Sequence record: MG252615.1
Strand: one strand, 5' to 3'
DNA: 41,317 bases
DNA from: Escherichia phage vB_EcoS_HSE2
The translations under genes were made by a program, and so were the position numbers. The notes below the pieces were generated by a model. The model ran no database searches and was not told the DNA's origin. It worked only from the letters and a program-made list of their open reading frames with translations. Numbering within the stretch: the stretch's first letter is position 1; each line of letters opens with the position of its first letter. This document shows positions 5,811-14,842 of the stretch, one piece after another.

Positions 5811-5942
5811 TCATTCCATCACCCACAGATAAATTGCGATGAACATGCCCAATACGGCTGCCATCATGCCGTATTGGCCCTCGTGACAGTAGACACCGGC
5901 AGCAAATCCCGCCAGTACCGCGATAATCAGTTTACTTGGCAT
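5811..5942 (-). CDS. Small hydrophobic membrane protein (43 aa)
   Basis: Hand-translated MPSKLIIAVLAGFAAGVYCHEGQYGMMAAVLGMFIAIYLWVME; GGAGA Shine-Dalgarno; below ORF-track size cutoff. Confidence 0.3.
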   Translation of the reverse strand: MPSKLIIAVLAGFAAGVYCHEGQYGMMAAVLGMFIAIYLWVME

Positions 5943-8136
5943 AACGCTTCATCTCCGCGCCTTCTGCTACAAGAGGGAACCCATCGGCCCACTCCGGCAA
6001 TGCGCACATTAATTTTTCCAGTTCAGCCACCGTATACTCAGGGGTGTCTGGAGTTTCACATACCAGTTCATCGTGTACCGAAAGCACGATTGGATACCCG
6101 CCGCCCTCAACATTAATCATCGCATACGCAAGTAAATCACGGCACAGCGCCTGAACAATGTTTTCGCAGGCTTTGCCGCCGTGTGTGTACAGGGTAGTCC
6201 ATTGGCGGGTTAACTGGTTTTCGCCTTGGTACTTGATTCGCACATTCGTGTTTACCCGTCCGTCTTCGTCTGTTTCCTTTGTCACACTAACACCGATTCC
6301 AGGATACGAGAGGACGCGACCTGACGGCAACTCCATGCATAACCACCAACCAGGAACCTTCCTGCCGGATGAATCAAATTCTACCGTACGCCATATGCGG
6401 ATAGCCCTTCCCCCCTTCCTGCGCAAGTGTGCTCCCGCCCAAAATTCACGACCAGGATTACGAACAGCGGCTAAAATTCCGTCTTTAAGGTCGCGCCAGA
6501 ACGCTACTGTTTCGGGGTGTGACTCGCGCCACATACGCTTGATTGCGTCACATGTGCGCCACACTTTCTTATCAAGAATATACGATGGTCTGTCATCCTT
6601 TTCACCCGGATGCGGCGGTCGCTTTGCTTCCTGAATACGCGCCCACTCATACCCACGTGCGGTAGCGGCCCAGATGTGGTCGGGGAATGTACCGTCCATT
6701 GTTTTTGCCATCTCAATAAGGTCAAGACCTAAGTTTTTAGCGAACGTAACGAACGCTCCGACGCCCCCCTCATAGCCGAGGCCAAGCTCGCAGGCCTTGC
6801 CTATCTGTCTGATTTCCTTGAAGTTTTTCTTAATATCGTCGGGGTCCATGCCGAACATCTTACCTGCGGTTACGCAGTAAATATCCAGCCCTGCACGGAA
6901 CGTATCGAGCGCAGTTTCTTCTCCCGCCAGCCACGCTAAACCACGGCCTTCGACGTTAGAGTAATCGGCGACGACAAACTTATGTCCGGCTTCCGGGATA
7001 ATGCAGCTACGAACCGTAGATGCCGTTAGCTTGGCTACATCAAAACGGCGATGCGCTCGGCCCTTAAGTAACGCTGAAATGCCTTTATCCAGTTCATCAT
7101 CGTGATAGTAACCGCGCGCCAGGTTCTGCGGCTGGAAGCCTTTACCCGCCCATCGCAGAGTACGTTTTGCCCCGCCGTACTGCAAGCAACCGCGGCGTCG
7201 GTCGTCCGATGAGCGGCCTAACAGTAGCGGGTTATATTTCGTTGATGCTGTGGATGCCGCCCCGAGGCGCATTTCGATAATCGTGCGCGCGTCGTCCGGT
7301 AAATCATCGTCGGCCAGCAGGTCATTCAGCGTTGACTTCTGTGCGTTGTGGATTCGGTGCGCAGGAGCCAGTTCACGCAGAATTGGCAGGAAGTCTTTAC
7401 CGGTAAGCGAGCCGCCGTATTTGCGTTGGGCTTCTTCCTGTAACTGCGCTTTGTGTTTCTCCACGGCTTCAATCGCGGCTTCCGCCAGTGCAACGTCAAC
7501 CTTAAACCCGCGGTCATTGATTAACTGGTCCAGTTCCAGTACACGGTCCTCGAACTCAGAGTTACCCCAACGCGGCAGCTTATGGAATACTTCACGCATC
7601 GCAGTGATGTCGCTCACGGCGTACTTGATGAACAGCGCCCACTCGTCCGGGTGTGTTTCAGCGGTGTAGCGGCGGATTTTGTAGTTCTTCGGTGTTGGTT
7701 TAGAGAAACGCTGAATCAGCGCCTTGCCGCGTTTGTCTTTCGCGTTGTCTGCGGACACGCCCAGCACTTCGCACAAGGCATCAAGAGAACCCGGCAGCGC
7801 GTGGCGAAACGCCCAAATCATCGTATCAATAGTGTTGCTTACCGGTATATCGAAGCCCCAGCAGTGTTTCATGATTAGGCGATCGAACATTGAACCGTTG
7901 TGCCACGCCATCTTAATACGGCTGTTTGGCTTCACCAGGCGGCGTAACGCGCGGTGCAAATCTCCAGGCATGTCGCTGCCGTCGGTGCAATCCCATACCT
8001 GCACAGGTTCGTCGTCAAAAGCGTATGTGCAGATAAGCACTTCGGTTGACGGGTGTTCAGCGTAAGCGTAGGAACCGACTTTCTTTAAATCTATGCCGCT
8101 GTAGGTTTCAAAGTCTAAGTAAAGCAATGTGTTCAT
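5932..8136 (-). CDS. DNA polymerase, family A, with N-terminal 3'-5' exonuclease domain
   Basis: Exo motif LDFETYS; polymerase motifs DYSNVEGR (A), KxxxKxxNFGxxYG-like (B), VHDEL (C); ATG at 8136 overlaps upstream stop (ATGA). Confidence 0.85.
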   Translation of the reverse strand: MNTLLYLDFETYSGIDLKKVGSYAYAEHPSTEVLICTYAFDDEPVQVWDCTDGSDMPGDLHRALRRLVKPNSRIKMAWHNGSMFDRLIMKHCWGFDIPVSNTIDTMIWAFRHALPGSLDALCEVLGVSADNAKDKRGKALIQRFSKPTPKNYKIRRYTAETHPDEWALFIKYAVSDITAMREVFHKLPRWGNSEFEDRVLELDQLINDRGFKVDVALAEAAIEAVEKHKAQLQEEAQRKYGGSLTGKDFLPILRELAPAHRIHNAQKSTLNDLLADDDLPDDARTIIEMRLGAASTASTKYNPLLLGRSSDDRRRGCLQYGGAKRTLRWAGKGFQPQNLARGYYHDDELDKGISALLKGRAHRRFDVAKLTASTVRSCIIPEAGHKFVVADYSNVEGRGLAWLAGEETALDTFRAGLDIYCVTAGKMFGMDPDDIKKNFKEIRQIGKACELGLGYEGGVGAFVTFAKNLGLDLIEMAKTMDGTFPDHIWAATARGYEWARIQEAKRPPHPGEKDDRPSYILDKKVWRTCDAIKRMWRESHPETVAFWRDLKDGILAAVRNPGREFWAGAHLRRKGGRAIRIWRTVEFDSSGRKVPGWWLCMELPSGRVLSYPGIGVSVTKETDEDGRVNTNVRIKYQGENQLTRQWTTLYTHGGKACENIVQALCRDLLAYAMINVEGGGYPIVLSVHDELVCETPDTPEYTVAELEKLMCALPEWADGFPLVAEGAEMKRYAK

Positions 8137-8411
8137 AGTCCGTACCACGTCTGATAGTCTGCTTCTGTTAGATGGTCGTCGCGTTCTGGTTTCTTGTTTT
8201 TACCACGTTCTATTATTTCCGCCCGAGTCCGGTCTGGGTCTGTGTCCTCTATTAAGTGTTTATGTTCCTCGCATGCATAGTGTTTATACCAGTCTCGTAC
8301 CTTGTAAGCGGGAGGGTATTTAGTCATCCAAATTGCTCTAACTTTTTTACCTTCTGCCTTGCAAAATTTGCAGTAGGTGACGTGTCTGTATCTCTTAAGT
8401 TCCGCTGCCAT
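8133..8411 (-). CDS. Hypothetical Cys/His-rich protein (92 aa)
   Basis: CKFC and CEEH pairs suggest a zinc-binding fold. Confidence 0.45.
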   Translation of the reverse strand: MAAELKRYRHVTYCKFCKAEGKKVRAIWMTKYPPAYKVRDWYKHYACEEHKHLIEDTDPDRTRAEIIERGKNKKPERDDHLTEADYQTWYGL

Positions 8412-8470: not shown

Positions 8471-9097
8471 TTAGCGGCGGCGACGTTCGCGGCGCGGTGC
8501 TTCATCTTCTTCGTCGTCTTCCAGGTCATTGACGCTTGCAGCGACTTTAGAACCCCCGAACGCTTTACCCTCACCAACGTATTTAATTGCCAGCAGGTTA
8601 ACCCCGAGGACTTTGTATTTCTGGCTGAACCAGATTTCGACGCTTACGTTAGCAACGCAGCCGCTGTAAACCTGTTCGCCTTCAATCTGTTCGCCGTCTA
8701 CGTTGAAGTCCTGTTCTACCTGAGTCTCACCTTTTTTAGAGGTTACAATCAGTGGCTGTTTCTGTGCCTTTGCTTTGAAGTAGAAGCCTTCCGGGAAGTC
8801 TTCAAACGGATTGTCGCGCTCGGCGATGTCTTTAATCGCGCATTTATCCATGTGCTTACCTTCGCCGTAGTTGGACTTCATCCACTTCTCGGCGGCGGCT
8901 GCACCTAATGCTTCTTCAACTACAGCGTAGACTGTGTCGTAGAGCGCATCGATTTGCGCGTGGTCAGACGGCAGGATGATAGTTGCGCTATACTGACCTT
9001 TAGTGATTGAGCCATCATCGTTTTCACGGTCTTTTTCGCGTTCGAATACGTTAACCCAAGCAGTGTTTACTTTACGCAGATTTAATTTCAGTCCCAT
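8471..9097 (-). CDS. Putative ssDNA-binding protein (phage SSB-like, acidic C-terminal region)
   Basis: About 208 aa, acidic stretch DLEDDEEDE near C-terminus, placed inside the replication module; fold not verified. Confidence 0.4.
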   Translation of the reverse strand: MGLKLNLRKVNTAWVNVFEREKDRENDDGSITKGQYSATIILPSDHAQIDALYDTVYAVVEEALGAAAAEKWMKSNYGEGKHMDKCAIKDIAERDNPFEDFPEGFYFKAKAQKQPLIVTSKKGETQVEQDFNVDGEQIEGEQVYSGCVANVSVEIWFSQKYKVLGVNLLAIKYVGEGKAFGGSKVAASVNDLEDDEEDEAPRRERRRR

Positions 9098-9150: not shown

Positions 9151-9179
9151 ACTATAATAGCTTACTATTCAGGTGTCAA
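9151..9179 (-). promoter_or_regulatory. Sigma70-type early promoter with palindromic operator in spacer
   Basis: TTGACA, 17-nt spacer, TATAGT on minus strand; spacer has AATAGC-TT-ACTATT (9156..9169). Confidence 0.6.
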
Positions 9180-9183
9180 CACT

Positions 9184-9675
9184 TTATTTGCCGTGGTTTT
9201 CGTGGAAACCGTACTTAACTTCTGCAGCCTTTCTCGCGGCTATTGCGTCGTCGATAGTTTCGAAACGTCCGAGATGAATTACTCGCTTCTTAACTTTTAT
9301 CTCAGCTCGCCATTTTCCGCGGCTTTTATCAAACCTAACACCCGTCACACCGGACGTGTTGTTGCGAGCTAAAGATAAATTACGGCTGTTCTCTTTTCGG
9401 GTTGTTTTCCTCAAATTAGAAAGAAGATTATTTTCTCGATTATGGTCGATATGGTCTATCTCCTCTCCGGGTTGAAGTTTATTTTCAGGCTTCATCATAT
9501 CCCATATAATTCTATGCGCCTGAAATGTCCTTCCGTGTAAACGGACGCACACATAACCCCAATTACGAACAGCAGCAACTTCGCTCCCGGCGGGCGCGCG
9601 ATTGCTGTTAGTTACGCGCCAATATAACTTACCAGTGTTGGTGTCATACCTAAAATAATCTCCCCATTTAATCAT
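9184..9675 (-). CDS. HNH homing endonuclease with C-terminal AP2 DNA-binding domain
   Basis: HNH motif IDHIDHNRENN...N; AP2-like GVTGVRFDKSRGKWRAEIKV...HLGRFETIDDAIAARKAAEVKYG; ATGA overlap with upstream gene. Confidence 0.75.
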   Translation of the reverse strand: MIKWGDYFRYDTNTGKLYWRVTNSNRAPAGSEVAAVRNWGYVCVRLHGRTFQAHRIIWDMMKPENKLQPGEEIDHIDHNRENNLLSNLRKTTRKENSRNLSLARNNTSGVTGVRFDKSRGKWRAEIKVKKRVIHLGRFETIDDAIAARKAAEVKYGFHENHGK

Positions 9676-10928
9676 TCCAAATCCTCCTCTGTTACCCCTT
9701 TCCACTCAGGTCGTTTGTCGTCTGCTGCGGCGATTGTCGGTCGACCAGGATTACGGATAATGAATTCCGTCAGTTCTTCTTCTGGGATAACTTTCACGGC
9801 TGCTGTAGGGGTAATGATTGACTTAGCCATAACTTTATCTCCAAATTTAGCAATAACTGCCTCTGGGTCCGCCCAGGAGCGATTGCCACCCCGCCCTTCA
9901 ACCAGTTTGTACCCCGGCACTTTCTTACCGGAATGCAACGCAGTAGCCATAGCTTTTTCAACCTTGTCGATGTGCTGGCGCAACAACGGCAACTTCTCAT
10001 ACTCAGCTACTAGTTGCTCCGGCGTAAGCTCAAGTGCAAAGTCGTCCTCCAGTTCTTCCGCCAGCACAGAATTAACCGTCTTTGTACGCGCGGCGCATTG
10101 TTCTGAGAACCGACACCACTGACAACCATCGACCGACGGTTTGAAATCCGACGCTTTAAGGTTCTTCTTACCGCGGAAATAAGCATCAAGCGCTAACAGC
10201 GCGCGTTTCTGTGCGAACTTAGCGAACAGTTCCAGACCTTCAACCGAGATGTCCCACTCCGACGCACCGCCCGCGTATGGCTGGAAGATGACCAGACGAA
10301 CCACGGTGATGTTATAACGTCTCTTGAGTCGGCGATAAACACCAAGAGCGTAAAGCATGAGCTGCTTGTTTTCTTTCGCTTCGACACGATGCCGTCCAGT
10401 TTTCAGGTCGCCGATAATGAGCATGTGCTCGTCGGAGTTAGCCAGTTCCCGCACGGCAACAAGGTCAGCCGTTCCGAACGTCTCAACGCCTTCGTACCCT
10501 GGGTGCAATACCTCAGTAAGATTGACGCGCATTTCCAGCTTGGCGTATGTCGCTACATCGATAATCGCTTTGCAGTAGTCGGTGTACTTTCGCACCTGTT
10601 CAATCATGTCCGCCGTAATCAGTACCGCACCTTTCATCGGGCTGATAAGCGCCTTAATCTGGCCTTTACCCTCATCCAGCACGTAAGTACCGACTTCGCG
10701 CTCTAACGGCAACGCAGTTCCGCGAATATAAGCGTTGAGGTGGACCTCCGCTATTGTGTGGCACGCGGTCCCTGTAACGGCGGATTTACCAGACGTGTTG
10801 GGGATATCTTTTTCGCATGCCAGTGATGCAGCACAACTCAGCCACTTTTTAGCACCTGACGGCGACAGTAAGGCGTGCACGTCATTATTGCCGCCGCGTT
10901 CTTTTAAAATCATGCCCTGTTCTCCCAC
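9672..10928 (-). CDS. PD-(D/E)XK nuclease, Cas4/RecB-like, with 4-Cys cluster
   Basis: DLKTGRH...E.K...QLMLYALG nuclease motifs; N-terminal Cys plus C-terminal CQWCRFSEQC. Confidence 0.6.
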   Translation of the reverse strand: MGEQGMILKERGGNNDVHALLSPSGAKKWLSCAASLACEKDIPNTSGKSAVTGTACHTIAEVHLNAYIRGTALPLEREVGTYVLDEGKGQIKALISPMKGAVLITADMIEQVRKYTDYCKAIIDVATYAKLEMRVNLTEVLHPGYEGVETFGTADLVAVRELANSDEHMLIIGDLKTGRHRVEAKENKQLMLYALGVYRRLKRRYNITVVRLVIFQPYAGGASEWDISVEGLELFAKFAQKRALLALDAYFRGKKNLKASDFKPSVDGCQWCRFSEQCAARTKTVNSVLAEELEDDFALELTPEQLVAEYEKLPLLRQHIDKVEKAMATALHSGKKVPGYKLVEGRGGNRSWADPEAVIAKFGDKVMAKSIITPTAAVKVIPEEELTEFIIRNPGRPTIAAADDKRPEWKGVTEEDLE

Positions 10929-11182
10929 TGGTCAATTAGATGTCTGGTCTGGTGCTGGCAATGCATAGCCCAGCTATACATCGACTCGAAGACATAAAAG
11001 TCAGGTTTTGCGAAAGTCGTGCGCTTAATCTGCGACACGTGACGGCCTATATCTTTAGGCCGCGGTACTTTGCCTAAGTACGCCATCTCTTCCATCTGGT
11101 GCGCACCGGACGGCGCACGCAATAGCCATAGCGCCTCTGTGTTATCCCGCCTGTCTACGGCGCGATAGAGTTGGTAAATCAT
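10910..11182 (-). CDS. Hypothetical protein (90 aa)
   Basis: ORF in early operon. Confidence 0.4.
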   Translation of the reverse strand: MIYQLYRAVDRRDNTEALWLLRAPSGAHQMEEMAYLGKVPRPKDIGRHVSQIKRTTFAKPDFYVFESMYSWAMHCQHQTRHLIDQWENRA

Positions 11183-11225
11183 ATTTCCGACCCTCAGTTA
11201 AAGCGGCCCGAAGGCCGCCAGATAG

Positions 11226-11726
11226 TTATTCTTCTTCGAAATACTTGTTCTTGATCGCCGTCAGGCGTTCCAGGTACTCTGCCAGGTCTTCATCTTTAAT
11301 CGCGGCAATCTTCATCTTCTTACCGGTGAACTCTTCCAGCAGTTCGTCAGAATCGTCGCACGCGGCATCGCTTGGACCTTCGTTAATCGCATCGTCGATA
11401 GCCTGAATCTGGTCCCGAAGAGACTGGTAATCGACTTCTTCTTTCTCTTCTTCCGGCTCTGGCGTAGGCTCCTCTGCTTTAGCTTTACGCGGCTTGCGTT
11501 TAGGCTTCTCGTCTTCCGCCGGTTTAGTGTCGACGATGTTTTCACCTTCGACCGGGATTTCTTTTGTTGCTTCTTCGGTGCACTCGGCTACCGCTTCTTT
11601 GGCATACACTACCGTCTCTACTTCCAGCGGCGCGGCAACCTGAACAACCTGTTTCACACTGTTCGCAGCAATCAGTTCATGCGCAACTACGAAACGTTCC
11701 AGTAATTTCAGAAATTGTTCTAACAT
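11226..11726 (-). CDS. Highly acidic, low-complexity early protein (166 aa), first gene after the early promoter
   Basis: Glu/Asp-rich with PEPEEEKEE and C-terminal FEEE; promoter-proximal position. Confidence 0.5.
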   Translation of the reverse strand: MLEQFLKLLERFVVAHELIAANSVKQVVQVAAPLEVETVVYAKEAVAECTEEATKEIPVEGENIVDTKPAEDEKPKRKPRKAKAEEPTPEPEEEKEEVDYQSLRDQIQAIDDAINEGPSDAACDDSDELLEEFTGKKMKIAAIKDEDLAEYLERLTAIKNKYFEEE

Positions 11727-11757
11727 TTGTTTCTCTCCTCTCGTTTGGTATGGGCTA

Positions 11758-11786
11758 ACTATAATAGCGAACTATTCACATGTCAA
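11758..11786 (-). promoter_or_regulatory. Sigma70-type early promoter with palindromic operator in spacer
   Basis: TTGACA, 17-nt spacer, TATAGT; spacer has AATAGC-GA-ACTATT (11763..11776). Confidence 0.6.
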
Positions 11787-11790
11787 TGGG

Positions 11791-11819
11791 TTTTTCTAAA
11801 ATAATTAATATGGTACTAT
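11791..11819 (+). promoter_or_regulatory. Putative promoter of the XRE regulator gene with operator-like palindrome
   Basis: -10 TACTAT at 11814..11819, weak A/T-rich -35; AATATG-GT-ACTATT at 11807..11820; divergent from the early promoter. Confidence 0.4.
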
Positions 11820-11850
11820 TCGCATATCAACTAACTAAGGAGTAATTGAT

Positions 11851-12066
11851 ATGCAACCCTCTGAACTAGGCATCCGTGTAGAACAACGCCGCAAAGAACT
11901 CGGCATCTCCCAGCGCCGTCTGGCTGTCCTGACCGGCGTTTCCCAGGGCGCAATTAACCAGCTGGCACTTGGGGTAACTCAGGATGTCCGCCCGGCGACG
12001 CTGTTTAAACTGGCGGAAGTGCTGCAAGTAGACGCTAAGTGGCTGGCGTTGGGTGAAGGGGCTTAA
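11851..12066 (+). CDS. XRE-family helix-turn-helix transcriptional regulator (Cro-like, 71 aa)
   Basis: HTH signature ELGISQRRLAVLTGVSQGAINQL; AAGGAG Shine-Dalgarno; lone plus-strand gene inside minus-strand block. Confidence 0.75.
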   Translation: MQPSELGIRVEQRRKELGISQRRLAVLTGVSQGAINQLALGVTQDVRPATLFKLAEVLQVDAKWLALGEGA

Positions 12067-12081
12067 CGCCCCCTTTCTTTT
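12056..12081 (+). terminator. Intrinsic terminator overlapping the XRE stop codon
   Basis: Stem GGGGC/GCCCC with loop TTAAC, followed by TTTCTTTTT. Confidence 0.6.
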
Positions 12082-12084
12082 TAC

Positions 12085-14322
12085 CTATTCCAAATCCTCC
12101 TCTGTCACCACCAGCATTTCATTCGGTTCGTATATTGTCTTCGGCCTTAATCTATCCCCTATTCTTTCGGGTATACGATATGTTCTCGGTACTACTTCGC
12201 CGTTAGCATCGCAACCAAGCATTAGTTCTCCGTCTTTCAGCATTTTATCAAGATGGGTGTTAGTCACAGAAAAGTCACCGGAACGAGCCACTATCTGCTG
12301 CTGAGTAAAACCGCGACCTGTATCATCCGACTGTTGCAGGTCTTCCAGTGCCGAAAGTATTGACTCCTTCCTTACTTCATCCCTGCCGCGTTTAACTTCT
12401 TCCTTTACTTTTTCTTTACCTTTATCAGATAGCCCTTCTTCCCGCTCTTTCTCCTCGTCGGTCTTGAACGGTTCGAAACCCCACGGCATCAGCACAAGTG
12501 CCTTATGCGGCTCAGGAAGGTCCAGGTTTACGATTGTACCGTATTCCTCCGTGCTGCCCAGGAACTCAACCGCGCGGTATTCTTTCGGCGGCGGGGCTTC
12601 ACGGAACTGTACAGACTCAAGCACCATGCCGACGGTTTTCTGTTGAGGCCCGTGCTTAAATTTCGAGTGGTATACGTTTATCTGGCGGTCGGTAGCGCGT
12701 TCGATTGTCAGCTCGACGTCGACACCTGCATACAGTGCCCCGCTGCCACGGGCTTTCTTTCCACCCTTCGGCGTATGGTGGACAACGCCCACCGCGGCTT
12801 TAGTCGCATCACGTACTTCTTTCAGGATGGCGATAACTTTACCCATACCGATTGCCGTGGACGAACTGTTCTCGTCGAACTTATCAATCGTCAGGGCTAG
12901 CGTCTGGTTAAGGGTATCAAACGCGACCACCCCAATTGGCTCATCGCCAGCAGTTTCACGCATTAACTTAATCAGGCTTTTCAGTTTTCCGACTTCGCCC
13001 ATATCGATAACATGTACATAATCTTTACCTTCCTCGCCATATTTAGCCGCTAGCGCATCAATACGTGTACGTGTAGCTGCACCGCCTTCGCCATCGATAT
13101 AGAAATGGTGGCAACGCTGGGTATCCGCCCCTGCAAACCGGTATCCGGCGGCGCTCAGGTACATCATCCCCAGCGTATAGAATGATTTGTACGTACCAGA
13201 TTCACCGACAATATCCCATATGCAATCTGACGGCATGTAACCTTCTACTACGAAATCAGCCTTTACCGGTTCCGGTAGCTCGTCCTCTTCTGAGCCCTCG
13301 TCTTCCAGGTCGTCGAGGCTGCATGAAACAGATTCACGCGCACCCCATCCGATAGCCTCGGCGACTTCACTGAACGGCAGTCCGGTCGCATCACACGCGT
13401 ATTTCCACACTTCTTTCGGGGGCATTCCTTCGGTCGCGGCAATGTCGGTGTCGTGAATCATGGTTACGTTCGGCGCTTCGTATCCCTCGCGCGGGAAACA
13501 TAACAGGAAGTCGTCCGGGCGTGGTGTCGGGTCGCTGTAGTTTTCTGCGTGTTCTGGCGTAGCTGGCATCTTAAGGCCACGCGGCGTCATGATGCCGCCG
13601 TACTCGAATGCCAGTGCTTCAAACGCATCTGTAAACGCGGTGCGCAGTTCTTCCGGTATCTGGTAATCAGATGCGCTGCTGATGTCAACGGCTGGGACGC
13701 CTTCCAGTAACTCATCAGGGTCAATCAGGTCGTTGCGGCGCGACCAGATAACGGTAGCGCCGACAGGAGGCAAGTACATCGGCTGCGAAAGAGTGAACCC
13801 GCTGCGGTCGGCACCCATGCCTTTGAAGAAGTGCTCCAGTAATCCATGGCGAACACGGATGATGTTGCCGCCTTCGACCGGGCGGGCCAGCGGCATGACG
13901 ACGCGAAAGCGCGGGGCTTCGTCTGTGTGTGATGCCGTGGTATAGAGGCACATCGCCCGCCGGCTGCGCTTAACCAGGCGCACAGCTTCCTGATACTCTT
14001 CCAGGGTTGCACTGTCAAAGTCCAGGTACGCCAGCGACGATTTGCTTACAGACGCGTCGCAGCGATAGAAAAAGCCTTTACGCGCTTGCTTAAAGTCACC
14101 TGTTTCCGGGTCTTTTACGGTGCTGTGCGTAGAGTCGCACGCAGCGGTGATGTAACCAGGTGCGGTCTTCGGGTTAATTCCGTCACGGACAGCATCAAGC
14201 GGCTGGATTAAATCTTTCAGGTCGTCCAGCGTTGCCGTGTGTGTGGTTCTGACGTTTATATCCTTTTTCTCGGCCCGCGCGTTGCGACGAGACCACGAGT
14301 AGGATAAAATTACATCGGACAT
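12085..14322 (-). CDS. Primase-helicase (N-terminal primase-like region, C-terminal RecA-like ATPase)
   Basis: 745 aa; Walker A-like GESGTYKS and RecA/DnaB-like core in C-terminal half; replication-module position. Confidence 0.65.
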   Translation of the reverse strand: MSDVILSYSWSRRNARAEKKDINVRTTHTATLDDLKDLIQPLDAVRDGINPKTAPGYITAACDSTHSTVKDPETGDFKQARKGFFYRCDASVSKSSLAYLDFDSATLEEYQEAVRLVKRSRRAMCLYTTASHTDEAPRFRVVMPLARPVEGGNIIRVRHGLLEHFFKGMGADRSGFTLSQPMYLPPVGATVIWSRRNDLIDPDELLEGVPAVDISSASDYQIPEELRTAFTDAFEALAFEYGGIMTPRGLKMPATPEHAENYSDPTPRPDDFLLCFPREGYEAPNVTMIHDTDIAATEGMPPKEVWKYACDATGLPFSEVAEAIGWGARESVSCSLDDLEDEGSEEDELPEPVKADFVVEGYMPSDCIWDIVGESGTYKSFYTLGMMYLSAAGYRFAGADTQRCHHFYIDGEGGAATRTRIDALAAKYGEEGKDYVHVIDMGEVGKLKSLIKLMRETAGDEPIGVVAFDTLNQTLALTIDKFDENSSSTAIGMGKVIAILKEVRDATKAAVGVVHHTPKGGKKARGSGALYAGVDVELTIERATDRQINVYHSKFKHGPQQKTVGMVLESVQFREAPPPKEYRAVEFLGSTEEYGTIVNLDLPEPHKALVLMPWGFEPFKTDEEKEREEGLSDKGKEKVKEEVKRGRDEVRKESILSALEDLQQSDDTGRGFTQQQIVARSGDFSVTNTHLDKMLKDGELMLGCDANGEVVPRTYRIPERIGDRLRPKTIYEPNEMLVVTEEDLE

Positions 14323-14380
14323 GTTGTATTTCCTTCAGCAAGTAATTTGGCCTCGGCGTTCACCGCGTCGGGGCTTTCTT

Positions 14381-14614
14381 TTATTCCAGGTCTTCTAAAG
14401 TGGCTGCCATTCCGCGAACTTCTGCAACGGCGCTATATTTCCCGCCAACGTTTTTCACGACACCGGATTTAACCAGCACCTTTAACGACCCCTCAATAAT
14501 GGCGGAACTATAGTACTTAAAATAACTACGACGCAAGTCGATAACGCTGCACGACCCTTTTTTACGCGTCAACGAAACGACCGCCGTAAATACGCGTAAC
14601 TGGAACTCGGTCAT
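14381..14614 (-). CDS. Small winged-helix-like protein (77 aa) ending in TLEDLE
   Basis: ORF between HTH gene and primase; C-terminal motif shared with two other replication proteins. Confidence 0.45.
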   Translation of the reverse strand: MTEFQLRVFTAVVSLTRKKGSCSVIDLRRSYFKYYSSAIIEGSLKVLVKSGVVKNVGGKYSAVAEVRGMAATLEDLE

Positions 14615-14781
14615 TTTACATTCTCCTTAATCCACGCCTCTACTTTCTCCGGGTCAAATGTACCTGGCTGCCGGCGCCCCATAATGCGGATACAACAATC
14701 CGGGAACTTACCGCTCTTTAACCAGTTATTCAGCGTGCGACGAGTAACCCCGATACGCTCTGCTACCTCGTTCTGTGTCAT
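14611..14781 (-). CDS. Small HTH DNA-binding protein (AlpA/excisionase-like fold), first gene of the primase operon
   Basis: MTQNEVAERIGVTRRTLNNWLKSGKFP; GAGG Shine-Dalgarno 8 nt before ATG at 14781. Confidence 0.55.
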   Translation of the reverse strand: MTQNEVAERIGVTRRTLNNWLKSGKFPDCCIRIMGRRQPGTFDPEKVEAWIKENVK

Positions 14782-14813
14782 TCTCAAACCCTCATTATCA
14801 GTTAACGAAACCA

Positions 14814-14842
14814 AGTATACATTGCGAATAATGGGAAATCAA
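14814..14842 (-). promoter_or_regulatory. Sigma70-type promoter for the primase operon
   Basis: Minus strand TTGATT, 17 nt, TATACT. Confidence 0.5.

Follow-up and report, generated by a model that had tools for sequence, protein, structure and literature searches.

Three proteins encoded in the replication module on the minus strand of Escherichia phage vB_EcoS_HSE2, a primase-helicase, a nuclease of the DUF2800 family and a 77-amino-acid (77-aa) winged-helix protein, end in a common acidic tail, and we consider it likely, with a probability of about 0.6, that this tail is a portable short linear motif that would dock its carriers on one shared receptor. The window, by which we mean the whole 41,317-base stretch that was analyzed, is about 90% identical in DNA sequence to many genomes of Kagunavirus (subfamily Guernseyvirinae), and its DUF2800 protein is 100% identical to the one filed under vB_EcoS_HSE2. 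The consensus of the motif, [A/V]-[T/S]-[D/E]-x-D-L-[E/D/x], is an acidic frame around an invariant Asp-Leu and stands at the C-terminus or 0-3 residues from it. It has the traits of a short linear motif, namely a conserved island that follows linkers variable in both sequence and length, and an appearance on proteins that are unrelated to each other. This island of conservation, taken together with repeated acquisition, a copy on the protein that binds single-stranded DNA (SSB) and the matching of tails within genomes, is the signature of a docking motif read by a single receptor.

Three replication proteins with one tail

Translation of the window gives TEEDLE, TEEDLE and TLEDLE at the ends of the primase-helicase, the nuclease and the winged-helix protein, exactly as an original prediction made on this DNA had claimed. 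The same prediction held that the third tail is written in other codons, which is the case: a stretch of 19 nucleotides, ACAGAGGAGGATTTGGAAT, is the same in the tails of primase and nuclease, whereas the winged-helix tail reads ACT TTA GAA GAC CTG GAA. Given the amino-acid composition of the window, the chance that any one protein ends in EDLE is 1.6e-5; for at least three such endings among its roughly 70 proteins, the Poisson probability comes to about 2e-10. Scanned in all six frames, the whole window has [DE]DLE nowhere but at these three tails and at a single site inside the primase. BLASTP with E allowed up to 100 aligns no part of the 77-aa protein with the final 171 residues of the primase, so the common tail is not explained by a detectable domain duplication, and the idea that the winged helix and the C-terminal part of the primase are paralogs was rejected.

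Conservation of the tail among close and distant relatives

Among 42 related loci from IMG/VR, which form our sample of close relatives, the primase tail is TE[EDG]DLE in 39/39 complete orthologs, nearly all nuclease orthologs end in [TS]E[ED]DLE, and the winged-helix orthologs end in AT[LP]EDLE without exception (23/23). Jerseyvirus-like primases, which are only 64% identical and have different residues before the motif (...NDNIKTTEGDLE vs ...NEMLVVTEEDLE), keep the tail. That the peptide is conserved, and not just its DNA, had been part of the prediction, and orthologs do keep the tail through synonymous codon changes; its retention in all complete primases, nearly all nucleases and all winged helices means that conservation, not loss, is what the orthologs show. 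The slot between the genes for the Xis-like helix-turn-helix protein and the primase is polymorphic in loci L001-L042, where it holds the 77-aa protein, a 91-aa allele, or proteins of 96, 149 or 70 aa that are unrelated and have no such tail. The 91-aa allele belongs to the same PHROG, is 34% identical and has a longer, different linker, and it still ends in ...ISRDLE. In phage fKuEco01, the N-terminal half of the primase has been swapped and the TEEDLE tail kept.

Deeper relatives were collected by tblastn of the primase against GenBank phages and from 80 loci found by pattern searches with a DUF2800 alignment. Word-indexed homolog searches with the nuclease and the winged helix gave close relatives only, and the distant tails come from an exhaustive search of representatives and from pattern-based retrieval of loci; one contig of 2.7 kb gave no gene context. 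At least 13 lineages, among them Kagunavirus, Jerseyvirus, SE1-like phages, Dhillonvirus and Eiauvirus (Table 1), have a primase and a nuclease that both end in [acid]-D-L-x(0-3), the primase with 1-2 residues after D-L; the linkers cannot be aligned and, in the distant lineages, the helicase domains are only about 31-35% identical to that of the window. The tail's D and L fall outside the Pfam domain, yet neither varies in an alignment of 17 DUF2800 representatives whose mean column identity is 40%. The number of residues that follow D-L shifts jointly in the two proteins of the SE1-like group, being one in both primase and nuclease of L059, L127 and L106 and two in both proteins of L044, L084, L049, L051 and L050.

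Table 1. C-terminal sequences of primase and nuclease in individual lineages or loci
Lineage or locus	Primase	Nuclease
Kagunavirus	TEEDLE	[ST]EEDLE
Jerseyvirus	TEGDLE	TE[ED]DLE(A)
L059	AADEDLE	VSDEDLA
L084	SEEDDLEN	ATDSDLDD
L049	QEDDDLSD	VADADLSD
Eiauvirus	ATNSDLED	VKDDDLVD
Dhillonvirus	ATDDDLKD	ATDEDLSNE
L126	ATDDDLAD	ATDEDLE
L053	ASDEDLNS	A[ST]DEDLS
L051	GDEDLEN	ASDDDLAN
SE1 (L044)	SEEEDLEN	ATDNDLAN
L050	VADDLGD	VSDDDLSN

The pattern is also specific. Counted in six frames, 15 lineage-representative loci have 1,696 open reading frames (ORFs) of 50 aa or more; the ending [DENSTG][DENSG]DLx(0-3) is found on 28 of them, and all but two of these 28 (26/28) encode the primase-helicase or the DUF2800 nuclease. 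In the lineages examined, the motif is absent from the polymerase, which always ends in ...RY[A/R]K. One could argue that the tails are a coincidence of functionless acidic low-complexity C-termini, since acidic C-termini are common in phage proteins and proteins that read as small-terminase-like end in ...DDLLA or ...DGLV, but this is refuted by the conservation data: the Poisson value for the window, the concentration of the pattern in two families and the invariance of D-L over deep divergence are all at odds with it.

Further carriers of the motif

The motif reaches beyond the three tails of the original prediction and is found on at least six unrelated protein families, including the SSB itself. 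In all lineages examined, the SSB carries [AT][TS]D-x-DL-x-DDD directly after its oligonucleotide/oligosaccharide-binding fold, as in ...GGAGEVATDSDLDDDDD... and ...ETATDDDLGDDDD..., and in the window the tail reads ...AASVNDLEDDEEDE followed by APRRERRRR (Table 2). In L084, the SSB string ATDSDLDD is identical to the C-terminus of the nuclease. The SSB tails alternate acidic with Arg/Lys-rich blocks in all enterobacterial-phage lineages examined, whereas those of T7 gp2.5 and Enc34 ORF6 are purely acidic. The primase has a second copy in the linker between its primase and helicase domains, and copies at the equivalent position occur in Jerseyvirus-like phages (CDEEDLADEE), eiAU (CTDEDLEDEP) and L053 (CTDEDLDDDP).

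The remaining carriers are small. Proteins of 62 aa end in ...TATDEDLE and one of 67 aa in ...DATDEDLE; they have no PHROG match, and they come in two versions that share the N-terminus MYK.NRNRPHETRIPVG and differ in their middles. Each of their stop codons forms an ATGA overlap with an ORF that opens with MKFDHLFLDTET, apparently the N-terminus of the DNA polymerase. A 70-aa protein inserted 3' of the nuclease ends in ...KKEDLE, again with no PHROG match, and is coupled to no gene.

Matching tails in distant modules

With an E cutoff of 0.001, the exhaustive search with the window nuclease returned 11,727 cluster representatives. Within the best 150 of these 11,727, a close clade carries the D-L motif, and farther members carry an acidic-aromatic DDF[E/D]D[L/V] after a conserved ...SDKRPAL..., often with a second, terminal [D/E]-x-[L/F/M]-[I/V/L/A]. 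Kagunavirus TEEDLE corresponds to motif 1 of these distant tails, with Leu replacing Phe. In a set of 80 loci of this distant clade, where the DUF2800 and gp2.5-like genes are adjacent in 78 cases and a family A polymerase is usually alongside, the gp2.5-like SSB next to the nuclease bears the same bipartite tail.

The endings of nuclease and SSB match within genomes: ESLI is paired with ESLI, AEFI with GEFV, DDFM with EDFM, EGLV with EGLV and SDMI with ADMI. Identical residues in the last four positions of the two proteins number 88/272 against 47.9 +/- 5.2 with shuffled partners and, when the set is thinned to 25 clusters at 50% identity, 29/100 against 13.0 +/- 2.9, with 0/20,000 shuffles reaching the observed value, in permutation tests that correct only partly for shared ancestry. 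In one locus, an 805-aa primase of another type ends in ...QDDFEDIP and the adjoining SSB in ...DPDFTDIP. Two loci, L152 (12639-14408) and L165 (14053-15843), have a polymerase of about 590 aa in place of the family A enzyme and keep the motif on nuclease and SSB, which looks like a polymerase swap inside an otherwise conserved module; the label PolB-like for this protein is our own reading of a weak PF10108 match and of the motifs KITINGSFGKFG and SANTDG.

Minus-strand ORFs of 152-175 aa in L131, L147, L149, L164, L165 and L201 end in ...DDLLA, ...LDGLV, ...GSDLL or ...FGDLA, sometimes matching the nuclease tail of the same genome. By sequence reading they look like small terminase subunits, and their tail is probably a generic binder of the large terminase subunit. 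These proteins of approximately 155-175 aa were therefore set aside as further clients; they warn against over-reading such tails and lend the motif no support.

Tail codons as a ribosome-binding site

Could the tail be shared for the sake of its DNA, as a Shine-Dalgarno sequence with an ATGA start or as a recombination junction for inserted cassettes, with the peptide as a by-product? The nuclease tail lends itself to this reading. Its GAGGAGGA together with ATGA forms the Shine-Dalgarno sequence and the overlapping start of the downstream gene for an HNH protein, whose ATG (9675..9673) overlaps the nuclease stop codon and lies 6 nucleotides downstream of GGAGGA (GGAGGA-TTTGGA-ATGA), a textbook succession of Shine-Dalgarno sequence, spacer and start. 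The HNH gene, inserted between the nuclease gene and the promoter-like site of the SSB gene, is absent from most relatives, which have other small ORFs or nothing at that site, and the nuclease gene ends in one of two ways. One allele reads AGT GAA GAA GAT TTR GAA TAA (SEEDLE) and is followed by an intergenic promoter-like TTGACA-17-TATAGT; the other reads ACA GAG GAG GAT TTR GAA TGA (TEEDLE), and the inserted ORF starts at the ATG of the ATGA overlap. A downstream ORF that overlaps in this manner accompanies 20/20 GAG-GAG/TGA alleles vs 0/18 GAA-GAA/TAA alleles. The 3' ends of primase genes behave alike where ORFs have been inserted, with the newcomer starting at an ATGA overlap, and the 62-aa ORF is coupled to the apparent polymerase start.

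These observations have a simple basis in the genetic code, as Glu-Glu-Asp-Leu-Glu-stop can be written GAG GAG GAT TTG GAA TGA, so that the tail doubles as a Shine-Dalgarno sequence and an ATGA start, and this way of writing the peptide accounts for the 19 identical nucleotides of the primase and nuclease tails. As the primary cause of the shared tail, however, a DNA signal is largely refuted, and we give it very little chance. In the window the coupling junction fits the step from nuclease to HNH gene only, since the primase gene ends in TAG and a hairpin with no minus-strand ORF downstream, and the winged-helix gene ends in TAA with a 58-nucleotide spacer and no GGAG. The peptide is thus kept without a Shine-Dalgarno sequence or a downstream gene, as it is in nucleases that read AGT GAA GAA and stop at TAA. 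Coupling does not call for the Leu, which nevertheless never varies; the SSB and the primase linker carry the motif internally; and many lineages have 1-3 residues after D-L. Because the peptide persists with or without the Shine-Dalgarno function, we regard the DNA signal as an overlay on the motif.

Predicted structures of the carriers

The AlphaFold2 model of the 77-aa protein is a canonical winged helix of three helices and a beta-hairpin with a mean predicted local distance difference test (pLDDT) score of 89, in agreement with the original label of winged-helix-like; its last 10 or so residues, which may be flexible, score 66-72. A more specific family could not be assigned, since Foldseek gave only generic matches (LexA N-terminal domain, MotA, RPA32C and cullin WHB) at E of 8e-3 or worse. 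The nuclease model has a mean pLDDT of 92 and matches AdnA (Foldseek E 7.5e-6), as well as MGME1, Dna2, Exo5, AddB and RecE, with Cas4 at 8.8e-4. Its Pfam matches are PF12705 (E 3.1e-8) and PF10926 (E 9.9e-70), cysteines C32, C272 and C278 are invariant and C269 is nearly so, and the earlier description of this protein as Cas4-like is well founded on all three counts. The Bas14 homolog of the nuclease has a predicted disordered C-terminal region (bioRxiv 10.64898/2026.07.14.737667).

The tail of the nuclease itself is, unexpectedly, modeled with confidence: the mean pLDDT of residues 411-418 is 85, E-E-D-L (414-417) makes a helix of one turn, and Thr413 stands in the place of an N-cap. The motif probably forms such a Thr-capped single helical turn. 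The tail may therefore dock on the body of its own nuclease and have a purely intramolecular role. Extended to all carriers, this would mean that each acidic tail folds onto the DNA-binding surface of its own protein as a DNA mimic or autoinhibitory plug, with no shared partner, and that the tails resemble each other through similar physical demands for negative charge and one hydrophobic anchor. All carriers are indeed DNA-binding proteins, the gp2.5 tail competes with single-stranded DNA for its own binding surface, as the title of a work cited in PMC5686142 (reference 14) has it, and removal of the tail alters the DNA specificity of Enc34 ORF6 (PMC5686142). We nevertheless hold this explanation to be unlikely. 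At least four unrelated folds would need to arrive at the same A-T-x-[DE]-D-L-[E] with its invariant D-L, and the winged-helix tail is modeled at low confidence. The eight-residue identity of SSB and nuclease in L084, the within-genome matching of nuclease and SSB and the joint change of tail length in primase and nuclease would all be expected for a common receptor, not for separate surfaces in cis.

Comparison with known docking tails

The principle of several replication proteins sharing one docking site is familiar from phage T7, where the acidic tails of gp4 and gp2.5 share sites on the DNA polymerase and on the DNA-binding cleft of gp2.5. In the tips of T7 gp4, T7 gp2.5 and E. coli SSB, an aromatic C-terminal residue is critical. 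The clamp-binding QL[SD]LF and PIP-box Qxx[LIM]xx[FY][FY] motifs are likewise found on polymerases, nucleases and ligases, and the bacterial SSB tip, ...DFDDDIPF, is resembled by the motif of the distant clade (DDFDDL..., then an acidic-hydrophobic C-terminus). On T7 polymerase, the anchoring site of the gp2.5 tail is the front basic patch (10.1101/2025.03.07.642097). This tail is implicated in binding both polymerase and primase-helicase (PMC5686142), and in the crystal of the Enc34 ORF6 SSB, the acidic tail lies in the groove of a neighboring molecule (PMC5686142).

The module described here is T7-like in that a primase-helicase and an SSB of gp2.5 fold (PF10991) bear acidic motifs with one hydrophobic anchor after linkers that may be flexible, with a family A polymerase in the same module, and by analogy the logic might also be that of T7, with several clients exchanging at one site. 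It differs in that the anchor is a Leu at position -2 followed by a terminal Glu, where T7 has a C-terminal Phe; the SSB motif is internal and followed by a basic Arg-rich extension; and the motif is present on a RecB/Cas4-like nuclease, a winged helix and small proteins as well, with two copies in the primase. Lacking a C-terminal aromatic residue, the tail is not a member of the T7 tail motif family, although in distant relatives motif 1 does contain Phe and the C-terminus is hydrophobic.

The likeness to the bacterial SSB tip (...DDDIPF), a hub element to which many replication and repair proteins bind, lies in an acidic run and a hydrophobic end on a tail that may be disordered here too, and the distant tails, DDFDDL... 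and then [DE]-x-L-[IVL]-COOH, look similar to it. The arrangement is inverted, however, since there one tail has many readers and here many proteins have one tail, and the Kagunavirus form has no Pro-Phe: the window tails end in D-L-E and the window SSB in RRERRRR, without the hydrophobic tripeptide I-P-F. This resemblance bears on the idea that the receptor is a host protein, such as a reader of the bacterial SSB tip, so that the phage would borrow or block host replication or repair factors. Some phage SSBs end in ...QQDDLPY or ...DFTDIP, and the motif has a Leu flavor in the clade of enterobacterial phages and a Phe flavor in the distant clade. Against this mimicry stands the Glu at the end of the Kagunavirus form, and the co-variation within genomes of endings such as EFI/EFV, DFM/DFM and GLV/GLV seems to fit a fast-evolving phage receptor more easily than a conserved host protein; we judge a host receptor to be improbable, a little more so than a purely intramolecular role.

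With clamp-binding motifs and PIP-boxes, the tail shares a "tool-belt" logic, in which a short and often C-terminal motif lets several DNA enzymes take turns on a hub. Inspection of the tail sequences finds no clamp pentapeptide QL[SD]LF, there being no Gln and no paired Leu/Phe or other paired hydrophobics, and no clamp gene was noticed among the annotated ORFs, the rest of the window not having been scanned for one. Exonuclease-annealase pairs such as lambda Exo with the C-terminal domain of Red-beta, or RecE with RecT, offer another parallel, in that the genes for a resection nuclease and for a protein that anneals or binds single-stranded DNA are neighbors whose products should interact, and our nuclease model matches RecE (Foldseek E 8.3e-4) and, weakly, lambda Exo (E 0.0085). 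The lambda pair makes contact between folded domains, whereas the linear motif is common to both partners here, as might be expected if they compete for a third site or if one acts as a pseudo-ligand.

The duf2800-gp2.5-polA module has been described before (PMC8093625), and our literature search found this description but no account of a tail shared between its proteins. What is known is thus the principle, from T7 tails, the SSB tip and clamp-binding motifs; what is new is the sequence of the motif, the fact that a resection nuclease and small accessory proteins bear it, and the match between nuclease tails and SSB tails.

Candidate receptors and evidence against a shared receptor

From the repeated appearance of one motif on unrelated proteins we infer that the tail acts by mediating protein-protein contacts. 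Each copy would insert its Leu, or Phe in distant relatives, into one site on the receptor that is both basic and hydrophobic, and the carriers would then be recruited to the same place of the replisome or recombination machine, where they would compete or hand over to each other. The original prediction took the shared tail to suggest a common hub, possibly the polymerase or an SSB-like protein. The suggestion of a common partner is strengthened by the additional unrelated carriers, the SSB copy and the within-genome matching of tails; the proposed identities fare less well, as the SSB is itself a carrier and not simply the hub, and the loci with a PolB-like enzyme leave the polymerase unsecured.

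There is no clear winner among the candidates, which we would rank as the single-stranded DNA groove of the gp2.5-like SSB, then a basic patch of the family A polymerase, then a pocket of the DUF2800 nuclease, which would bind its own tail in cis. Loci that have a PolB-like polymerase and keep the shared motif argue against the polymerase as sole receptor, and it is the confident model of the nuclease tail that raises the nuclease itself as a candidate. An attempt to map the basic patch of T7 polymerase onto the window polymerase was given up: phmmer against the PDB aligned only a core of about 60-115 residues to Taq, Bst and Klenow, and the 60 matches listed, which also included apicoplast polymerases, did not include T7 gp5.

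Several observations weigh against a docking motif with a single shared receptor. A DUF2800 homolog of a Dhillonvirus tolerates truncation (bioRxiv 10.64898/2026.07.14.737667), and the nuclease tail is modeled as an ordered turn, not as free disorder. A few nuclease orthologs end in ...EEDL, ...DDLEA or ...DDLEALTS, so that the motif does not strictly need a free carboxylate at a set distance, and the terminal Glu in place of a critical aromatic means that the chemistry differs from that of the T7 and SSB tips. The winged helix is dispensable, since unrelated tail-less proteins fill its slot in other Kagunaviruses, and the AAA_25 primases of the distant clade are without the tail in the loci examined. 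Shared ancestry, for which the permutation tests correct in part, may contribute to the matching of endings, and acidic-hydrophobic ends on small-terminase-like proteins indicate that such tails are generic in phages.

Layout of the replication module

The genes of the module and the copies of the motif in the window are listed in Table 2, together with three small carriers from related loci. The SSB has a gp2.5 fold by its matches to Pfam PF10991 (Enc34_ssDNA-bd, E 6.6e-16) and to phrog_112 "Gp2.5-like" (E 2.2e-41).

Table 2. Positions of genes and motif copies in the window and, where a locus is named, in related loci
Feature	Position	Strand	Remarks
Xis-like helix-turn-helix protein gene	14611..14814	(-)	first in order in the module
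77-aa winged-helix protein gene	14381..14614	(-)	phrog_5169; polymorphic slot upstream of primase gene
TLEDLE of 77-aa protein, tail codons	14384..14401	(-)	...MAATLEDLE; peptide VRGMAATLEDLE; then TAA and 58-nucleotide spacer
Primase-helicase gene, 745 aa	12085..14322	(-)	AAA_25 helicase domain; phrog_3228
DDLEDE, second primase copy	13297..13314	(-)	residues 337-342, linker between primase and helicase domains
TEEDLE of primase-helicase, tail codons	12088..12105	(-)	...LVVTEEDLE (NEMLVVTEEDLE); then TAG and hairpin
XRE repressor gene	11851..12066	(+)	convergent
166-aa acidic protein gene	11226..11726	(-)	phrog_3127
90-aa protein gene	10910..11182	(-)
DUF2800 / PD-(D/E)XK nuclease gene, 418 aa	9672..10928	(-)	RecB/AdnA/Cas4-like; four conserved cysteines
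TEEDLE of nuclease, tail codons	9675..9692	(-)	...KGVTEEDLE; peptide RPEWKGVTEEDLE
HNH_3+AP2 homing-endonuclease-like gene	9184..9675	(-)	by domain matches
gp2.5/Enc34-type SSB and annealing protein gene	8471..9097	(-)	DUF2815, PF10991; motif carrier and candidate receptor
NDLEDDEEDE, internal SSB motif	8501..8530	(-)	start of SSB tail; then basic APRRERRRR (8474-8500)
92-aa protein gene		(-)	between SSB and polymerase genes
Family A DNA polymerase gene	5932..8148	(-)	without motif, ends ...MKRYAK; candidate receptor by T7 analogy alone
...ATDEDLE protein (62-67 aa), L053	12396-12584
...ATDEDLE protein (62-67 aa), L057	12409-12597
...ATDEDLE protein (62-67 aa), L078	12538-12741

The 166-aa protein has an aromatic-acidic C-terminus (11229-11246, minus strand) that is conserved in most lineages examined, in the forms KYFEEE, KYYEIEE, KYYELED, TYFELED, EFFEFEEE and EEFYDAE. 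This tip is closer in look to the aromatic tips of T7 and SSB than TEEDLE is, and it may be a second docking tail of the same module.

Two near-consensus promoter-like sites on the minus strand have identical hexamers (TTGACA-17-TATAGT, 11/12 matches), one upstream of the 166-aa gene (11786..11758) and one upstream of the SSB gene (9179..9151); in relatives without the HNH insertion, the latter lies directly 3' of the nuclease stop codon. The hairpins after the primase and winged-helix stop codons were rejected as structures of the coding-strand RNA, their stability not exceeding that of shuffles (z -0.5 and -0.6). The same hairpins score as intrinsic terminators of the plus strand (12045-12076 and 14349-14375) with T-runs that overlap the tail codons, of which the first would end the convergent XRE repressor gene and the second would keep antisense transcripts from running through the primase gene.

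Implications for the DUF2800-SSB-polymerase module

TEEDLE could, more tentatively, be the local dialect of a family-wide "tail code" of the DUF2800/gp2.5-like SSB/polymerase module in thousands of phages, a bipartite DD[F/L]xD[L/V] motif, often with a hydrophobic C-terminus, that co-evolves between SSB and nuclease and has been copied onto helicases, primases and small proteins. We think this broader proposal clearly less probable than the shared docking motif itself. If it is true, the module would run by competitive exchange of tails at a single receptor, and the winged helix and the 62-70-aa proteins would serve as adaptors, or as competitive regulators setting the timing of replication relative to recombination. 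That the tail codons double as a ribosome-binding site shows in addition how an acidic motif can make the end of a gene a favored landing site for homing endonucleases and other inserted genes.

The module is among the commonest replication and recombination cassettes of tailed phages, and it has a link to phage defense, as the DUF2800 nuclease of a Dhillonvirus triggers a type IX retron (bioRxiv 10.64898/2026.07.14.737667). A single transferable peptide would be a direct experimental handle on the hub that would organize it. Such a hub could explain how a resection nuclease comes to travel with the replisome, and it could give roles to small "hypothetical" proteins that bear the tail.

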